Assembly (NCBI GenBank): GCA_029856155.1
Contig: JAHQWL010000034.1
Location: forward strand, 1-47,248
Source of the DNA: Promethearchaeia archaeon
GTDB lineage: Archaea; Asgardarchaeota; Lokiarchaeia; Sigyniarchaeales; SOKP01
Length of the DNA: 47,248 bases
Direction: 5' to 3'
The notes beneath the pieces are model-generated. The model saw nothing but the letters and a program-made list of their open reading frames with translations. It was not told the DNA's origin and did no database searches. Made by a program: the position numbers and the translations under genes. Shown one piece after another: positions 1 to 26,771 of the stretch; position 1 is the stretch's first letter, and the number at the start of each line of letters is the position of its first letter.

Positions 1-142
1 CAGATAACACCCCAACAAGAGAAATACCTATCCAAGGAACGCAAAAATACTCCAACACACACCCAATCGCATTCACCGCAAATAACACTGACCCACACAA
101 CAGCGATATGCCACCAAACAAATTACCCCCTAGCCTCGCCAT
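1..142 (-). CDS. Small hydrophobic membrane protein, paralog of 2187..2453 (5' part only; runs off the window edge)
   Basis: ATG at 142 (minus) reads MARLGGNLFGGISLLCGSVLFAVNAIG...; nt 1-127 are identical to 2312-2438; codons 2-5 differ by 5 substitutions, 4 of them synonymous. Confidence 0.8.
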   Translation of the reverse strand, partial: MARLGGNLFGGISLLCGSVLFAVNAIGCVLEYFCVPWIGISLVGVLS

Positions 143-209
143 AACATCATTTGATCACTCTGTCTTTTAAACTTATTTGTCAAAAAGAAAAAGAAAAAAT
201 AAAATCCTT

Positions 210-305
210 GCTCGAGAACATACTCCATCAACTCTTCTCATCTCAAATCAACCATCAACTTACCTTACCGCTCCTTTCCACATCCTATTCCCCTACACGC
301 TAAGC
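210..305 (-). repeat. Pre-23S 3' trailer / processing-stem arm, copy T1
   Basis: Shares GCTCnAGAACATACTCC...TCTCAAA...CTCC...CCCT...CTAAGC with 2103-2192 and 3645-3737; complementary to the 23S leader (7160-7304); followed on minus by a U-rich tract (182-204). Confidence 0.85.
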
Positions 306-457
306 CTGAACCTTGTGGTTCCTCTTTCAACACCACACACTCGTGCTATTGAGAGTGGCGGGCTGAACAGGTCGCCCGAAAGCTCCCTGCGTACACCCCC
401 ACCTCACTAACCCCGTCTTTTACGGGTGCACTCGTCTCGCATACTCAGTTCGCGTCA
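289..457 (-). repeat. Perfect 169-bp duplicate of the 23S rRNA 3' end (end of ES39, H99-H101, start of trailer)
   Basis: Base-for-base identical to 3721-3889 (offset 3432). Confidence 0.95.
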
Positions 458-474
458 TCAAGCTGACATTGCTA

Positions 475-1980
475 TTATATTTTAAAATTCAAAGTCATAT
501 TACACTCTTCACATGTATCTAACTCTTTGGATTGCACGTGATTACAATTCGAACAAACTGTTTCTGGAAATGTTGAAAAAAAGTCTCGAATTTTAGATAT
601 TATCTCCCCTTGTCTATGAGTAAATTCTTTATTTGATTCTTTTTGATATTTATCAATCACTAACTCAATAACTAACTTGTATGTTTTATTTCCTGTTTGA
701 ATCTTCCAAGCTTCATATTTATAATCAAAATTCATTGTAAATTCTAGATTTCCTGTTTTATTTACCTTAATATTGTAAGGTTTATTTATTAAATACATAT
801 CAGGATATTGAGCTAAAATTTTAAGATATTCTTCTCTCGCATTGACTATATGCTTATTAATTGCGGAAACTATAAGCCCAGTCACAGTTCTGCCAAAAGG
901 AATAACATCTGGTACAATAGTTTGTTTAGTCTTTGGCATACTCGGCCCATATAATCTATAATTTGTCATCCATATATGACCAGGGTATTTAAAATGTGCT
1001 TTTGGTAGCTTTACAGTTCCTTTAAAATGAGCAATTATATGCTCGTCTGCTTGAAAAGAGTAAATGAAAACAGTTTTTTCAAGCAAGTTACTCTCTAATT
1101 CAAAAAGATCTCGTTCTTTTTCCGGAAATAATTTTACTATATTCATTTTAATTTTTAAATCCCATATCTTAAAAAAACTCGGATTTATTTTAACCAAATT
1201 GATTAAGAGATCTGCTGAATCTTCTAGTGAATTTTGCATAAAGTAATTAGTAAATACGATCACTAATTCTTCTTCTTTTTTCTTTGTTGCATATTCTCCA
1301 GCCCTAAATTCAAAATTTGTAAGATCAGCAATTATTTTTTCTTTGGTATAACATGCATCATTAGAAACAGGTTCTATTTTTTCTGGATATTGAAAATTTC
1401 TTTCTTTTAGTAATTCATTAAGTAGTTTGGATCTTAGATTACTATATACAATTTCCAGCATGCAAATGTCTGATGGATTTTTTTTTGGAATTTTCCCTTT
1501 AGGATATGTTCTTAAGATTGGTGCTAAACGATCATAAATTTCTGATTTACTTTTTTTTATTAGGATTGCAGCTCTTCTTATTAATTCAACATTTCGTTGT
1601 TTAAATGGTTTTTTAGCATCTAAATCCTTATCTTTAATGACACTGAGATGACAATAAGGGAATCTATGATCCCCCAGTATTAATTCAGACCTAGAAAAAT
1701 CATACTGCATAACATGCCAAGGGATATAAATGAAATCTCTATTCCTAATAACACAGAATTTTTGAATATTGATAGAAAAGAGATTTGTAAATGCCACCCC
1801 ATTATCTGTTAATATTACATGGGAAATCCATTTATCATTTTTAGCTTGAACGTTGATTTTTACTACTTTCAATTTTCCACTATAAAAAATGTGATCTTCA
1901 GAGGGTATTATTTTACTTAACTTTGAATTCTCTAGTGGTTCATCAAGCTCAACTTCATTTAAAAAATCTAGATTCTCCAT
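475..1980 (-). CDS. Hypothetical protein with two PH/GRAM-like segments and a C-terminal zinc ribbon
   Basis: 501-aa ORF; IIPSEDHIFYS...WISHVILTDNGVAF and FQADEHII...GHIWMTNYRLY resemble PH/GRAM strand patterns; C-terminal CSNC...CEEC. Confidence 0.7.
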   Translation of the reverse strand: MENLDFLNEVELDEPLENSKLSKIIPSEDHIFYSGKLKVVKINVQAKNDKWISHVILTDNGVAFTNLFSINIQKFCVIRNRDFIYIPWHVMQYDFSRSELILGDHRFPYCHLSVIKDKDLDAKKPFKQRNVELIRRAAILIKKSKSEIYDRLAPILRTYPKGKIPKKNPSDICMLEIVYSNLRSKLLNELLKERNFQYPEKIEPVSNDACYTKEKIIADLTNFEFRAGEYATKKKEEELVIVFTNYFMQNSLEDSADLLINLVKINPSFFKIWDLKIKMNIVKLFPEKERDLFELESNLLEKTVFIYSFQADEHIIAHFKGTVKLPKAHFKYPGHIWMTNYRLYGPSMPKTKQTIVPDVIPFGRTVTGLIVSAINKHIVNAREEYLKILAQYPDMYLINKPYNIKVNKTGNLEFTMNFDYKYEAWKIQTGNKTYKLVIELVIDKYQKESNKEFTHRQGEIISKIRDFFSTFPETVCSNCNHVQSKELDTCEECNMTLNFKI

Positions 1981-2102
1981 ATTAAATCACTTAAAAATAC
2001 TTTTTTGTCTTAAATATCAATATTAATACCTAATTTATATTTATTAGGTTTTAATGGATAGAATATAAATTCTCTGTTCATAAAAAGAAATAATAAATCT
2101 TT

Positions 2103-2192
2103 GCTCTAGAACATACTCCATCTTTTCTTACTATCTCAAACCATTCAATCATTATAATCTCCGTCCACGCTATATTCCCTCATAACCTAAGC
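2103..2192 (-). repeat. Pre-23S 3' trailer / processing-stem arm, copy T2
   Basis: Diverged homolog of T1/T3, starting at GCTTAG (which supplies the stop codon of the 88-aa ORF) and ending GGAGTATGTTCTAGAGC; followed by a U-rich tract. Confidence 0.85.
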
Positions 2193-2453
2193 ATAATAAA
2201 CAATTACCTGTATCAACACGCCTACAAAATAGATTACGCTCTCCACCACACCCAAAATACACCCAACCTTCCCAAATAGCCCATCCTTATCATATCTCAT
2301 CCCAATTAGCCCAGATAACACCCCAACAAGAGAAATACCTATCCAAGGAACGCAAAAATACTCCAACACACACCCAATCGCATTCACCGCAAATAACACT
2401 GACCCACACAACAGCGATATGCCACCAAACAAATTACCGCCCAACCGCTCCAT
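2187..2453 (-). CDS. Small Gly-rich membrane protein (about 3 TM segments)
   Basis: 88-aa hydrophobic ORF; mostly synonymous differences versus the paralog at 1-142 support coding. Confidence 0.75.
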   Translation of the reverse strand: MERLGGNLFGGISLLCGSVLFAVNAIGCVLEYFCVPWIGISLVGVLSGLIGMRYDKDGLFGKVGCILGVVESVIYFVGVLIQVIVYYA

Positions 2454-2467
2454 AACTCGCTACCGTA

Positions 2468-3463
2468 TCAAATTCGGTCCTCATTATCAGATTCTTCAAG
2501 ATATTTCTTGTATTCTTCTTCTTTTTGAGCCATTAGTCCATTTGTTCTCATTTCATCCCTTCTTCTTCTTTTTTCTCTAATCTCAAAAACATCAATTAGA
2601 AAACTAATATTCTTGATAATACATTCGAATTCTTCTTTACGTTGATTATCCTCTTGATAAATGGAAATAAATTGCGCCCCACACTCAAAGCATCTTTTCC
2701 GTAAAAAAGTTATCATTCCCATAGCATTATATTTAAATTTCTTTTTGATATTTCCTTCATACATTATTTGCAAGTGAGGTAATAACTCAGTTTCATATTC
2801 CAGGAACTTTAGAGTCTTGCTACTATCAATTAATCTGCATATTTCAAAACCTGGTTCTTCTTTATGAAGTGTATTGTATAATTGTTTAAAAAACTCATAA
2901 ATTTCCAATACTTCGTGAGTGTTCAATAGGGGTTTTTGGGTCTCTGGGATTCTATGTGGAATAAGTTCTTTTATAAATTCTTGCTTTTTCTTATTGTTTT
3001 TCTTTCTTTTTACAGTTATTGCTGCGATTATTGCTATGATTAAACCTATAATTCCAACAACAATCAATGGAATTGTAATAAAAACAACAGAAGTATTAAT
3101 CGTTATAGAAGTTGTGGAAATCCCAATATTAATAAAAAGAATATGCCATGTATCAATACTTGGTGGATGCCAAGTACCACTATCGCTAAAGAAACTATGT
3201 TTATTCAGCCATGCAGTATAGTCAGATAAAATTAAGTTATAAAACGCATCATATTGCTGTTGGGTTAAAGCAATAACCATGATAGCTGAGCTAGTTGAAG
3301 AAAAAGACCATTTGTATGGATCAAGATTACCCATAAAATTAGAATCAGGAATATAAGTATAAGGGGATAAGCTATAGGTTCCCCGAAGTGCTTGTACTGG
3401 ATATACATAATTTAATCCGCTGAAAATTATCAAAAAAATAAATATTAAATAATTTTTATTCAT
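2468..3463 (-). CDS. Single-pass membrane protein (signal peptide, extracellular beta-rich domain, TM, cytoplasmic domain with CxxC)
   Basis: N-terminal hydrophobic leader ending VQA; TM VVFITIPLIVVGIIGLIIAIIAAITV followed by KRKKNNKKK; CFECG in the C-terminal part. Confidence 0.75.
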   Translation of the reverse strand: MNKNYLIFIFLIIFSGLNYVYPVQALRGTYSLSPYTYIPDSNFMGNLDPYKWSFSSTSSAIMVIALTQQQYDAFYNLILSDYTAWLNKHSFFSDSGTWHPPSIDTWHILFINIGISTTSITINTSVVFITIPLIVVGIIGLIIAIIAAITVKRKKNNKKKQEFIKELIPHRIPETQKPLLNTHEVLEIYEFFKQLYNTLHKEEPGFEICRLIDSSKTLKFLEYETELLPHLQIMYEGNIKKKFKYNAMGMITFLRKRCFECGAQFISIYQEDNQRKEEFECIIKNISFLIDVFEIREKRRRRDEMRTNGLMAQKEEEYKKYLEESDNEDRI

Positions 3464-3644
3464 TTTTTTTAATCGTGGATTTCTGTTTATTAATAATAAA
3501 ATTGTACATTTTTATCTATTTATATTTTATACTAGAATTATAAATCGGCACTAAATTATTGGATTATATTAGGAATATGCAATTCCAAAATATTTAACTC
3601 TTATGTTAAGAAATTTTGAATAAAAATAAAAAAATTAAAATCTA

Positions 3645-3737
3645 GCTCTAGAACATACTCCTTCCCTTCTCATCTCAAATCATTCATCAACCATCACTTA
3701 TCGCTCCTTCTACGCTACAATCCCCTACACGCTAAGC
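3645..3737 (-). repeat. Pre-23S 3' trailer / processing-stem arm, copy T3 (adjacent to the intact 23S gene)
   Basis: Directly follows the 23S 3' end; GGAGUAUGUUCU pairs with leader AGAACAUACUCC (7286-7297) and GAGC with GCUC (7301-7304) around an AUA bulge (BHB-like). Confidence 0.9.
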
Positions 3738-3867
3738 CTGAACCTTGTGGTTCCTCTTTCAACACCACACACTCGTGCTATTGAGAGTGGCGGGCTGAAC
3801 AGGTCGCCCGAAAGCTCCCTGCGTACACCCCCACCTCACTAACCCCGTCTTTTACGGGTGCACTCGT

Positions 3868-4106
3868 CTCGCATACTCAGTTCGCGTCACCGCGCCCTGA
3901 TCTCGTTACAAAGCATCCCATACATTCAAATTATAATGCTTCTCGCTTCATGCTTACGTCCACGCTCATGCTTCCGCTTTCGCTTCCACGCGCGCGCAAA
4001 CACTCGCATTTACACTCCGATTGGCTTCCGGCTTTCACAGGAGAACCTTACCAATCACACCAACTTAAATACATAACACACCTCGCAACACTCACTATAC
4101 GAGATT
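3868..4106 (-). other. LSU expansion segment ES39 (helix 98 insertion, about 240 nt)
   Basis: Insertion between CCCGAAAAUAGUCAGCC and GACGAGUGCACCCGUAAAAGACGGGG; closing helix AUCUCGU(4099-4105)/ACGAGAU(3900-3906); GAAGC-like short repeats. Confidence 0.85.
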
Positions 4107-4284
4107 GGCTGACTATTTTCGGGTTTGGCTTCGTGCTTAGATGCTTTCAGCACTTATCCATTGGCGCGTGGCTGCTCGGCACTACCTTGTCAGATAACCG
4201 ATACACTAGAGGCGCCGGCAAAATGTTCCTCTCGTACTGATTTTCCCTTACCCTCAGTCAACCCACAAACCCAGTAGATAGAAT

Positions 4285-4327
<43 letters not shown>

Positions 4328-4359
4328 TTAATGGGCGTACAGCCCCACCCTTGGAGGTT

Positions 4360-4391
4360 ATGCGCCTGTGCTCCTTTGCGGAAACACATAT
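4360..4391 (-). other. About 32-nt insertion in the helix-91 loop of 23S rRNA; candidate BHB micro-intron
   Basis: 39 nt lie between GGAGG and CCUCC where 8 are canonical; GCGC-ACA...hairpin...GCGC-AUA arrangement. Confidence 0.65.
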
Positions 4392-6307
4392 GTGCGCCTC
4401 CAGGATAGGAAGAGCCGACATCGAGGAAGCAAGCCACGAGGTCGATAGGGACTCTTACTCGTGACAACTCTGTTACCCCCGGGGTAATTTTTCTATCACC
4501 TCAACCATCCACACGAGAAATGTTGAGGATCGCTAGACCAGGCGTTAGCCTCAGGATTCCTTGGTGATCAGAATCCAGTCAGACCAGCTTTTGCTCTTAA
4601 ACTCTTCAGCGGATTCCTGACCCGCTTGAGCTGATCATTGGTTACTCTAGATATTGTTTCTAGAGTGAGCCGCCCCAGCCAAACTGCCCACCTGCGGGTG
4701 TCCGACGCGGTATGGGCGCCGTTAGCGATTTCAAAGGGGAAAGCCGGTGTTCCAATTGTGCTCCGCCGTAACCGAGATCACGGCATCGACGCTCCCGACT
4801 ACACTCTGTATCCAATTCAAAACCGCAGCAACAAGCTGCAGTAAAACTCCACGGGGTCTTCTCGTCCCACTGGGTTTCTCCGGACCGTTCGCCGGAGTGT
4901 AATTTCAATCGTCAGAAGGCTGGGACAATGGGGAGAACGTTGGACCATTCATGCACGTCTGAACTTACCAGACAAGGCATTTGGCTACCTTAAGAGAGTT
5001 ATAGTTACTCCCGGCGTTTAGCAGGACTTACTCGGGTTGTAACCCGGATTTATCAGACTGCCACTGGCCAGGTTTCAGCCACTGTAAACAAGCTTTCGCT
5101 CTATCAGTGACCTATGTTTTTATTAAACAGTCGTCCCCCCCTAGTTATTGCAACTTGTGAGCCCCTGCACACTGCCGAAGCTGCGTGTAGAAGTTCGCAA
5201 GCAAGCCTTATCCCAAAGTTACGGCTCTATTTTGTCGATTTCCCTAGCCTCCTTTACACGAATACGCCTTAGGCTACTCACCTAGGGGCACCTGTGTCGG
5301 TTCTGGGTACGATCACGGCATTTCTTACTTTTGCTTTTTTAGTAGGTCCTGGGATTGGCGGAACCTTCCACAATTGGATGGCTATTCATGCTTTAAGCTG
5401 GGTCTAAGTATTACACTATTCACCAGCCTTATGCATTTAAATAGGGAAATATTCGACAGCCCTATTCCACCTACCCTGAACCGTCGGCACAAAGTCATGC
5501 GTTACCGCTATTTGTAGTGCCGTGGTACAGGAATATAAACCTGTTTCCCTTTCGCGTATACCAGTTAAGGGTACGCTTAGGATCGACTAACTCTTCGCTG
5601 ACGACGCATTGCAAAGAAACCCTTGCCCTTTCGGCGGATGGGATTCTAACCCATCTATGCTTTTACTATTACCAGGATTTTCACTACGGGCAGATCCACA
5701 GGAACTCACGCCCCTGCTTCTGCTCTACCCGCACGCTCCCCTACCAGATCATGGGGTTCTTCCGCCCATGCTCTTGGGTCTCGGTGGCAGATTTGAGCCC
5801 CGTCCATTTTCGGGGCTATATTTCTCGGCAAATGAGTTGTTACACACTCGTTAGGGAATGGCTACTTCTATACCTATCCTTTTGCTGTTTTAGAAATATA
5901 ACGCCCTTTAGTGTAACACTTAACCTGCACTTAGGGACCTTAACCCAAGTCTAGGTTGTTCCCTTCTCGGCGATGGACTTTACGCCCACCAACCCGTTTC
6001 CCAGAGTCTACGGTGCCAGCAGATTCGGAGTTTAAGAGCGGGGAGAGGAATTTCTTCCCCGTACCACGCAATTAGTGCTCTACCCCACTGGCTCCCTCGT
6101 CTGAGACTTGGCTGACACCAACTTCGGGGAGAACCAGCTATCACCGATCTAGATTAGCCTTTTGCTCCTATTCCCAGTTCATCCAAGTGAATTGCACGTC
6201 AACACTGGTGCAGACCTCCATCGCCCTTTCGAGCGACTTCATCTTGACCAGGAATAGATCGACCGGCTTCGGGTATTATAGCAGAGACTTTTGGCCCTTT
6301 AAGACCA

Positions 6308-6412
6308 TTCTTCTGGCTTAATTCCTTAGAAGGATTCACTAAACGTTTTCAGAATGGCAGAACCACTCTTAAACGAGTAGGTCTTCCTAATGTGATAATT
6401 AAGTTGCAAGAA
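6308..6412 (-). other. LSU expansion segment ES9 (about 105 nt)
   Basis: Insertion after GGGAAACC closed by UUCUUGCAACUUAAUU / AAUUAAGCCAGAAGAA, before GGUCUUAAAGGGCC. Confidence 0.7.
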
Positions 6413-7142
6413 TATTGGTTTCCCTATGCCTACGCGCCGTAAGACGCTTAAGCTTGCCACTACTATAAACTCCCTGGCCAATGATTCCAGACTGATGATG
6501 CGACCCTAGTCCTCTGTATTTTGATATTCTGTCACCAGAACTCATTCATGCAGAATCTGTCCTTTCAGGCTGCATCCTTAATAAACTATTTGGTTTCAAG
6601 CACTTTTCAACGCCCTTCCGGGTTACTTTTCATCTTTCGCTCACGCTACTATTTCGCTATCGGTCTTGGGACATATTTAGATTTACCAGCGTGTATCTGG
6701 CACGTTCATACGAGAAAACCATCCCGCATTACTCGGGGACTCTCGCAGCAACCTTCTAGATTATGATTACGCGGCTGTCACGCTCTATGGCTCAACATTC
6801 AAGAGGTATTCATCTTCTCTAGGGAGGTCGTACAAGGCCCACACACCACATTTCCCATAGGTTTCCCTAGGGATTCGGTTTGATCTAATCCGCTTTCGCT
6901 CGCCGTTACTCACGGAATCACTATTGTTTTCTTTTCCTCCTGGTACTAAAATGTTTTACTTCCCAGGGTTCCCCTTCCCATGAGGGAATCTTGCGGATTA
7001 TTAGGCCGCAAGCGGATGTCCTATTCGAGAATCTCGGGGTCAACGTCTTCATGCGACTAACCCGAGCTTATCGCAGCTTGTCACGCTCTTCATCGGTGCC
7101 CAAGCCAAGATATCCACCAAATAGTGGAGGCGTATTGGCGTC

Positions 7143-7312
7143 TAGTTGAGGAAAGATTCAGATTGCTTGTATAAGGGTATGCGTATTCGGAGACAATAAG
7201 TCTATTGAGTATCTATTAATATCACTCAATATCATTAATGACGATTTGAAACGATAATAAGAAGACATAAATTAATATTAATTAGGGAGTATGTTCTTAT
7301 GAGCATGATTTT
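7143..7312 (-). other. 5' arm of the pre-23S processing stem (leader)
   Basis: Blockwise complementary to the trailer: UCUGAAUCU/AGGUUCAGG, CCCUUAUAC/GUGUAGGGG, CUUAUUG/CGAUAAG, UUUCAAAUC/GAUUUGAGA, AGAACAUACUCC/GGAGUAUGUUCU. Confidence 0.85.
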
Positions 7313-7796
7313 TCATGCTTGGCTCCGGTTTCCTCAAACCAACAAAAGTACTTGTTGGTTTAAGCTCTCACTTCCTGTAGTACCAATTTCAAGACGGAAG
7401 TCTTTATTGATGTACTTCAGTGAGGCCTATGCCAGCTATCGGTCATATATCATCAATAATAGATGAGATATTTTTATTACCAATAACTTGTCGATGATAC
7501 ATAGGGAGTTTATTATTCAACTCATTTAATGCCATCGACAAAATATTAGAATAAATCCTTGATTAAAAATTTTATGGTCTAGTTCCAAAAATTTTGAAGG
7601 AGATGACAAATGGTTTGAGGTTTATTAATTAAAGAGTTAATAAAGAGCGAAATCATAAAAAAGGTAAATTAACAGAGAGTACAAATTAGAAAATATAGTA
7701 ACTTTTATAGTTTAATTATGAATACCATAAATTATTAATATTAGAAGTGTAAGATTTCGAAGGGATAATTGGATAGTCTAATACGAATAGTGAATA

Positions 7797-25990: not shown

Positions 25991-26178
25991 TATGCAAATT
26001 GATATTTTTTACTTAGATTTATAATGTTTTTTTCTAAAATTAATTTTCGGTAAAATGATTTAGATATATCAATTTCTTCTATTTAAACAGTAAGAATCTA
26101 AAAACTCAGGAAATTATAAGAATAAAAGTAAAAAAAATTGAAATATTCTTTATTTGATTAATAGGCTTTTTAATAGCA

Positions 26179-26292
26179 TTAAGGTCCTCCACCATCGCCT
26201 TTCCAACCTAACACAATACTCATCATAGGCAAAATGAAAGCAATGTTGGCTAATACAAATAAAAGAATCCTATATACTTTAAATATTTTCAA
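26179..26292 (-). CDS. 37-aa signal-peptide-like precursor 1: MKIFKVYRILLFVLANIAFILPMMSIVLGWKGDGGGP
   Basis: TTG start, TAA stop; 24/37 identical to the paralog with no indels; TATA box TTTAAATA 57 nt upstream. Confidence 0.8.
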   Translation of the reverse strand: MKIFKVYRILLFVLANIAFILPMMSIVLGWKGDGGGP

Positions 26293-26348
26293 ATTAATTA
26301 TCTTTTTATTAATTGAAATGAATTTATGTCCTTTTTTCTATATTATTC

Positions 26349-26356
26349 TATTTAAA
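26349..26356 (-). promoter_or_regulatory. TATA box (TTTAAATA) of peptide gene 1
   Basis: Consensus archaeal TATA at the same distance from the start codon as in unit 2. Confidence 0.65.
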
Positions 26357-26445
26357 CCGAAATAATCTAAAGATCCAAGGAATTATAAAAATAAATTTAA
26401 AAAAATATTTGAAATATTCTTTATTTGATTAATAGGCTTTTTGTT

Positions 26446-26559
26446 TTATGGTCCTCCACCACTTCCATTATACCCTAATACAATGCTAACCATAGGTAAA
26501 AAGGAAGCAATGCCGATTAATACAAATAAAGCAACTCTATATAACTTTAATAATTTCAA
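26446..26559 (-). CDS. 37-aa signal-peptide-like precursor 2: MKLLKLYRVALFVLIGIASFLPMVSIVLGYNGSGGGP
   Basis: TTG start preceded by AAGGT, TAA stop; paralog of 26179-26292. Confidence 0.8.
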   Translation of the reverse strand: MKLLKLYRVALFVLIGIASFLPMVSIVLGYNGSGGGP

Positions 26560-26615
26560 AATTGTAACCTTTTTTGTAAATGAAATGAATTTATGCCATT
26601 TTTTCTATACTATTC

Positions 26616-26623
26616 TATTTAAA
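26616..26623 (-). promoter_or_regulatory. TATA box (TTTAAATA) of peptide gene 2
   Basis: Consensus archaeal TATA 57 nt upstream of the TTG. Confidence 0.65.
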
Positions 26624-26771
26624 CAGAAAGAATTTTCTATATTTACAAAATAAATAAATCAATTTTTTTTTTAAAAAGAAATATTTTATTCAATTCAAAA
26701 GGAGTTCCGATGAAAAAGTTTAAAAAGTAAATTACTGCATATTAAATTCAGGACAAAAATTAAATAACAAA

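Follow-up and report, generated by a model that had tools for sequence, protein, structure and literature searches.

The closest described systems to the locus reported here are terminal-displacement arrays, insertions with long target duplication, islands at transfer RNA (tRNA) and transfer-messenger RNA (tmRNA) genes, and integrons. We analyzed a stretch of 47,248 nucleotides (nt), hereafter the window, which is the whole of contig JAHQWL010000034.1 (C34) in the genome of a Promethearchaeia archaeon (Lokiarchaeia, Sigyniarchaeales; GCA_029856155.1, G000). Near one end it carries a 23S ribosomal RNA (rRNA) gene, and downstream of this gene lie partial, same-direction copies of the gene's own 3' end and trailer, with accessory genes (cargo) between them. 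We call these sequences tails, the one belonging to the gene itself being the live tail and the displaced copies relics.

In the type VI secretion system effector-immunity arrays of Vibrio and in Rhs arrays formed by C-terminal displacement, for which homology-facilitated illegitimate recombination plus homologous exchange has been proposed (PMC5361080), a conserved upstream anchor is followed by its displaced 3' parts and the array grows at its head without an integrase. The 23S array likewise has a conserved head anchor with displaced 3' remnants downstream in one direction. Unlike in those arrays, an essential rRNA gene with its trailer forms the anchor, non-coding relics follow it, and the cargo genes are unrelated, run in both orientations, and even include a tRNA. 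Insertions with long target duplication (Nobusato, 2000; Furuta, Abe and Kobayashi, 2010) share with the array long direct target repeats of variable length (here exceeding 30 bp) and the absence of mobile-element genes. Each published case is a single event around restriction-modification genes, chiefly in bacteria that are competent, and rRNA is unmentioned (PMC2853133), whereas here one target has been reused up to ~14 times per genome.

Islands at tRNA and tmRNA genes, such as the Prochlorococcus tycheposons (bioRxiv 10.1101/2020.12.28.424599) and additive flexible islands (PMC10872708, PMC8430335), resemble the array in having a stable-RNA head and same-direction partial 3' copies between blocks of cargo, with the newest material closest to the gene. 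Those islands use site-specific integrases and short, fixed att sites. The 23S array does show a direct repeat of the target 3' end, but the target is the 23S gene, the copies measure 40-300 nt with free front ends, and neither an element-encoded integrase nor a fixed crossover is present. Integrons and clusters of attC sites lacking integron-integrases (CALINs), including archaeal and Asgard ones (PMC9668308), also consist of polarised small cassettes (here a median of 1.1 kb from tail to tail) that come from a shared pool and are reordered. Membership in this class was rejected: G000 encodes no IntI, the tails have neither an attC hairpin nor an attC core, crossovers do not fall at one base, and the cargo is not co-oriented. 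Taken on its sequence features, the array is probably a terminal-displacement or additive island with a new kind of anchor. No description of a 23S tail array was found in the literature searched, outside which most subscription papers lay.

Architecture of the tail array

Following the 23S gene on the minus strand, the order is trailer T3, a gene for 331 amino acids (aa), a gene for 88 aa, trailer T2, a gene for 501 aa, a 169-nt copy of the 23S tail, trailer T1, and a partial second 88-aa gene (Table 1). An initial annotation had read the same order, and the 331-, 88-, and 501-aa open reading frames are indeed on the minus strand, but only 47 codons of the second 88-aa gene are present before the contig ends. 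The perfect direct repeat on which that annotation was built was confirmed (289-457 and 3721-3889; 169 nt, 100% identity, spacing 3432), as were the three trailer copies and the lack of a recombinase gene in the unit. Its description as the 23S 3' end is right for 129 nt of mature 23S rRNA; the other 40 nt are trailer. Likeness around the repeat extends to 276 nt at 90%, and a second repeat pair (1-145 and 2312-2456) is 145 nt long at 97%. Cargo stop codons had been placed 14-17 nt from the next anchor, which holds for the 501-aa gene (17 nt), but the 14 nt is the gap between the 331- and 88-aa genes, and the 88-aa stop lies inside T2.

Structure modeling assigns the trailers to the 3' arm of the stem for pre-23S processing. 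Leader positions 7162-7168 and trailer positions 3731-3737 form a 3-4-3 bulge-helix-bulge motif, and the perfect repeat stops ~10 nt beyond it, where conservation between species ends too. The computed energy of the duplex with the leader is -113 kcal/mol for T3, -106 for T1, and -76 for T2, compared with -61 (+/- 6), -66, and -46 for the respective shuffles. Trailers are interchangeable as partners of the leader (foreign vs. native, -114.5 vs. -116.0 and -120.0 vs. -118.8), and since they are only 7-8% C, pairing through G-U would be tolerant. The 23S gene stands alone. We found no 5S or 16S rRNA gene in the G000 assembly, and in two relatives (G064 and G077) the 16S gene is ~50 kb from the 23S gene. 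Because the gene is solitary, nothing essential lies behind it, and its trailers can be exchanged, the site appears to tolerate insertion. A scan for promoters and terminators gave results at chance level. Expansion segment 39 (ES39; 3945-4140 in the window) occurs in two size classes in the genus. Measured from landmark to landmark, these are ~165 nt and 221-270 nt or more, and the window has 236 nt.

A tail profile built from 15 native 23S tails was used to scan the genome contigs and the loci of relatives. In the 4.1-Mb genome (a short-read-type bin, 97% complete with 5.7% contamination) it gave nine matches, three on C34, six in the first 8.5 kb of contig C83, and none elsewhere. The ends of these two contigs form one zone, because a relative carries the 23S gene and the C83 genes on a single contig. 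The window is thus the head of a larger tail zone that continues on C83. Among the cassettes between tails on C83 is a second, divergent tRNA-Pro(CGG) (L001:4382-4457), which occurs in five genomes at differing array positions; a further tRNA-Pro, called with the same anticodon, is on C88.

The identical 501-aa protein is encoded in three other assemblies (JGI 3300028837, SRR25582489, and SRR3085416). These share the cargo-to-repeat junction of the window and are non-identical, differing by 0.2-1.2% (98.8-99.8% identity), so the strain mosaic named at the outset as a refutation was not seen. In the JGI contig the match runs through the repeat and 35 nt into T1; another trailer end and a different gene, of 73 aa, then follow. 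In SRR3085416 the 501-aa gene directly follows a 23S-type tail with a chimeric trailer (on a unitig, so the tail belongs to the live gene or to a copy), and the cassette formed by the 331- and 88-aa genes is missing before it; T2 is chimeric relative to this variant. Switch points differ between strain variants, and crossovers occurred at several places in the trailer, upstream of a 17-nt core. For the 3432-bp unit as a whole, no empty site turned up in the relatives. The last link, from T1 to the second 88-aa gene, could be a strain mosaic or chimera, although we think it rather less probable than a true continuation; the second 88-aa gene itself may be a real second copy or the path of another strain. 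In the two copies of this gene, three of the four changed codons are silent.

Distribution in the genus and the phylum

The survey covered 54 genomes of the genus, with 62 related loci searched for profile matches and reversed sequences as the control. Tail matches occur in 45 of the 54 genomes. The 62 loci contain 182 matches, which with a single exception share one direction in each locus, and the reversed controls contain none. Relics are present in 32 genomes and one metagenome contig, amounting to ~160 same-direction, front-truncated tails with up to 14 each, and long contigs hold 8-13. Relics follow the live gene in 13 of the 21 loci that include it, and in the remaining 8 none was seen within the stretch available. 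The downstream regions of relatives, whose survey had been proposed as a check, are therefore variable and multi-tailed rather than fixed with a single trailer. In two single-contig assemblies (G006, CP070831.1, titled a chromosome, and G023) gene order across joins is unreliable, and their seemingly dispersed tails are uninformative, because both are scaffolds with runs of 100 N (L037-L040, L046-L047).

The front ends of 157 relics are spread evenly over ~280 nt, from ES39 to the trailer end. At least 128 relics reach the trailer end, and one extends upstream into ES39. Exact junctions, available in 42 cases, fall on 32 positions, which does away with the special breakpoint that had been proposed in an ES39 hairpin. 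Between-species identity is ~50-98% in ES39 and 89-100% in the block behind it. The near-absence of copies upstream of ES39 possibly reflects a divergence barrier, or else loss or misassembly of long copies. The idea that ES39 is exchanged along with the tail was unsupported once gaps were excluded.

Genes between tails run both ways (115 in the orientation of the rRNA, 87 opposite), so the co-orientation noted for the array in the window holds for the open reading frames there but is no rule in the genus. Tails lie a median of ~25 nt behind stop codons, with a wide spread that fits no 14-17-nt rule, and more than 100 nt from the start codons of divergent genes. A cassette retains the tail that lies downstream of it, and common blocks, including the second tRNA-Pro, are reordered between species; the 73-aa gene, for example, lies directly behind the live 23S gene in another species. 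A tail stands between the neighbors in 61% of the adjacencies that are broken and in 22% of those that are conserved (p = 8e-8; here, as in all our genus-wide tests, the genomes are kin to one another and the p-value overstates). Genes within 2.5 kb of the 23S gene are the least shared (33% vs. 57-82%). Two otherwise near-identical arrays differ in a 2.85-kb tract (L124:7486-10338 vs. L032) with 171 differences (~6% divergence) whose ends are not at tails; this tract is a recent, ordinary allelic replacement. Near array heads we also repeatedly saw opposite-strand genes for large predicted surface proteins of 880-1360 aa (L033:4181-7186, L034:3532-6177, L036:962-5032), in two cases with a tail that abuts the 3' end of the gene and has lost its trailer.

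The 16S gene served as a control in three genomes, where it is followed by a tRNA and then fixed neighbors with no such repeats. That tRNA reads as an intron-containing tRNA-Ala (L117, L118, L119). Outside the genus, four of eight genomes from other Loki families have one to three relics, one of the four being a closed genome (G050; 4,324,194 bp) with a 169-nt trailer relic of 84% identity ~4.5 kb downstream of its 23S gene (L097:5765-5923; C1:90764-90922). Further loci of the phylum have same-direction copies in 8 of 38 cases, with none inverted and none in the controls, and in six single-contig genomes of the phylum no copies were found within 19 kb. The trait is patchy and is densest in this genus among those tested.

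How the array may have formed

The tails are displaced in one direction with free front ends, whole cassettes are exchanged by crossovers inside tails, trailers are interchangeable, and relics decay neutrally. These observations agree with the initial annotation's view that accessory cassettes land repeatedly at the 23S 3' end and its trailer without a cis-encoded integrase. Of the two routes suggested there, homologous recombination involving relatives' DNA fits them best. We therefore favor, at a probability of about 60%, a model in which rare, homology-anchored illegitimate events found new cassettes and homologous recombination between tails shuffles them, both carried out by the host's recombination machinery. 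In a founding event, DNA from a relative would pair through the conserved 23S 3' region, and the non-matching end of the donor (its trailer and downstream genes) would be joined illegitimately at an arbitrary point in the last ~280 nt. The 23S gene would thereby receive a new working trailer, and its old tail would be displaced downstream as a front-truncated relic. In the more frequent shuffling, presumably by RadA, the live tail and the relics would serve as short homologies through which inter-tail blocks could be inserted, lost, replaced, or reordered, via linear double crossovers or transient circles. Relics themselves would be passive and decaying. The two steps are those already put forward for the Vibrio effector-immunity and the Rhs arrays (PMC5361080), and the products look like insertions with long target duplication (PMC2853133). 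The reading of the repeat as attL and attR from a 3432-bp circle is neither shown nor needed, as a linear double crossover yields the same product.

Several results weigh against this model. The founding joint was not caught, and we found no donor sequence spanning a junction. Junctions carry no microhomology signal (p = 0.26, in an indirect A+T test without donor flanks), and relics farther from the 23S gene are no poorer in quality (rho = 0.14, p = 0.26), leaving no age gradient. Synteny breaks are only weakly enriched at tails (91 vs. 77 +/- 7 of 200, with random intergenic positions as the null), and the relatedness of the genomes overstates the p-values here as well. Short relics offer 60-100 nt at 75-85% identity, which is little for RadA. 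Natural competence lacks support, as neither DprA nor ComEC was found above the cut-off in five genomes.

The geometry resembles that of tRNA islands that accrete with partial tRNA copies, as in tycheposons, so the array could in principle be a tandem accretion of integrase-driven elements targeting the 23S 3' end, whose integrases and front att parts were later deleted. We consider this improbable: no tyrosine recombinase or integrase fragment occurs in any array of the 54 genomes, most of which hold only an XerA-sized enzyme (in G000 a 311-aa protein on another contig), no resolvase was found in five genomes, and well-preserved copies begin at different bases. In one region of G024 (L071:6978-9918; C28:147977-150913) a tyrosine integrase does occur ~1.5 kb away from a solitary, decayed tail, which adjoins the 3' end of a gene for a 1578-aa surface protein. 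The integrase ends a provirus-like block of ~16 kb with no second tail beyond it, and without a flanking tail pair it was rejected as the array's enzyme; IMG/VR contains no viral contig with the tail pattern. Alternatively, the 23S end and its downstream genes may have been tandemly duplicated within the lineage and trimmed back to the tail, with transfer only reshuffling the products. Deletion is evident, since the trailer is lost in 16 of 58 long relics, the 88-aa gene is present twice, and the positions of tails relative to stops and divergent starts are those that trimming under selection would give. Yet the cargo between tails is mostly unique, the tails of one array carry trailers about as unlike as those of different species, and only the single relic noted above reaches ES39 or beyond (long identical copies would, admittedly, break assemblies too), all of which makes an internal origin hard to credit.

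The second route suggested initially was a trans-acting recombinase. In this view a site-specific enzyme of the host or acting in trans, XerA or another, would use the 17-nt trailer core in an integron-like manner with a new site. XerA is present throughout the genus, cassettes retain their downstream tail, and the core is the best-kept part of short relics. This prominence is a detection effect, because in relics detected through the 23S portion the core has held up no better than neutral sequence (6.3% changed vs. 5.3% at invariant rRNA positions, p = 0.31; lost in 16 of 58), and the core is thus neither a maintained site nor under selection. With crossovers at several points upstream of the core, we regard this explanation as unlikely. 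Two kinds of known site were also tried and rejected for the tails. They are not attC sites, having no stable single-strand hairpin (z 0.2-1.5) and an attC core pair in 1 of 158 tails, as in shuffles (1.1 expected), and they are not dif sites, since a pattern for 28-bp dif-like sites matched once in the genome and nowhere in the array. The one match, on the minus strand of C44 near offset 10745, is a candidate XerA site.

Variable front ends, a fixed rear end, a limit near ES39, and the start of T2 at the processing motif would also suit reverse-transcribed copies of a pre-23S 3' fragment. This is very unlikely given that the copies are in one zone and one direction rather than dispersed, that each tail continues into DNA linked to downstream cargo with no pile-up of starts at the processing site, and that four of five genomes, G000 included, have no reverse transcriptase, the fifth having one away from its array contigs. 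Equally remote is a joining of segments from co-occurring strains at the 169-bp repeat by the assembler, which the short-read-type bin and its contamination, the contig end in a duplicated gene, and the different gene that follows the same repeat in another assembly might suggest. Against this, other assemblies contain the cargo-to-repeat junction too, and the sequence 35 nt into T1. With 70-90% divergence, most relics are not explicable as repeats that were collapsed; many lie together on long contigs, and one is in a closed genome. Finally, it is conceivable, though not what we expect, that a dedicated Asgard gene-capture route coupled to the 23S end, through breaks or R-loops at the processing stem or an enzyme of no known recombinase family, founds the cassettes and accounts for the ES39 limit. 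A fixed site and known integrases are excluded by the tests above, and a structure- or transcription-guided process is compatible with them.

Cargo and implications

The features of the window are collected in Table 1. Searches of Pfam, NCBIfam, and Atlas for the function of the cargo yielded weak leads only, and no restriction genes were seen in it. The 331-aa protein is not on record in the other assemblies searched, and the 501-aa protein has a 46% relative elsewhere that is likewise encoded behind a 23S tail. Away from the array and unrelated to it, the window contains two 188-nt repeats (26074-26633) with 79% identity, 267 nt apart.

Table 1. Features of the 23S tail array in the window, from the gene toward the contig end.
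Feature	Coordinates	Strand	Remarks
5' leader arm of the predicted pre-23S processing stem	7136..7335	-	Half of the 3-4-3 bulge-helix-bulge motif (7162-7168); basal helix (7286-7297)
Stand-alone 23S rRNA gene, array head	3761..7141	-	Rfam RF02540, 2534 bits
Source of the perfect repeat	3721..3889	-	Last 129 nt of 23S (from the 3' side of ES39) and 40 nt of trailer through the bulge-helix-bulge motif (3731-3737)
Live trailer T3	3613..3760	-	Predicted to form the stem's 3' arm; contains the 17-nt core (3645-3661), followed by a T-rich stretch
331-aa predicted single-pass membrane protein	2468..3463	-	No family above the cut-off; one 46% relative
88-aa hydrophobic protein	2187..2453	-	Stop codon within the first bases of T2; found only in this species
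Relic tail T2	2081..2192	-	Consists of trailer alone, from the bulge-helix-bulge half site onward; contains the core (2103-2119); profile model positions 203-311
501-aa protein with C-terminal zinc ribbon	475..1980	-	Same protein in three other assemblies
Relic tail 1	178..457	-	Perfect 169-nt copy (289-457) and trailer T1 (core at 210-226); junction 17 nt past the 501-aa stop
Start of second 88-aa gene copy	1..142	-	Cut by the contig end after 47 codons

The array accounts for the breaking of Loki assemblies at the 23S gene, and its orphan tails are liable to be miscalled as non-coding RNAs or extra rRNA genes. It also suggests a tolerated insertion site for future Asgard genetics. Gene capture anchored on rRNA is an old idea that becomes testable here, as a primer in conserved 23S sequence would allow the zone to be amplified from any sediment. 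The array marks the region behind the 23S gene as a hot spot where gene gain can be predicted, in the archaea nearest to eukaryotes. If the favored model is right, the most conserved gene of the cell would act as a recombination anchor between species, through which distant relatives could deliver genes without mobile elements.

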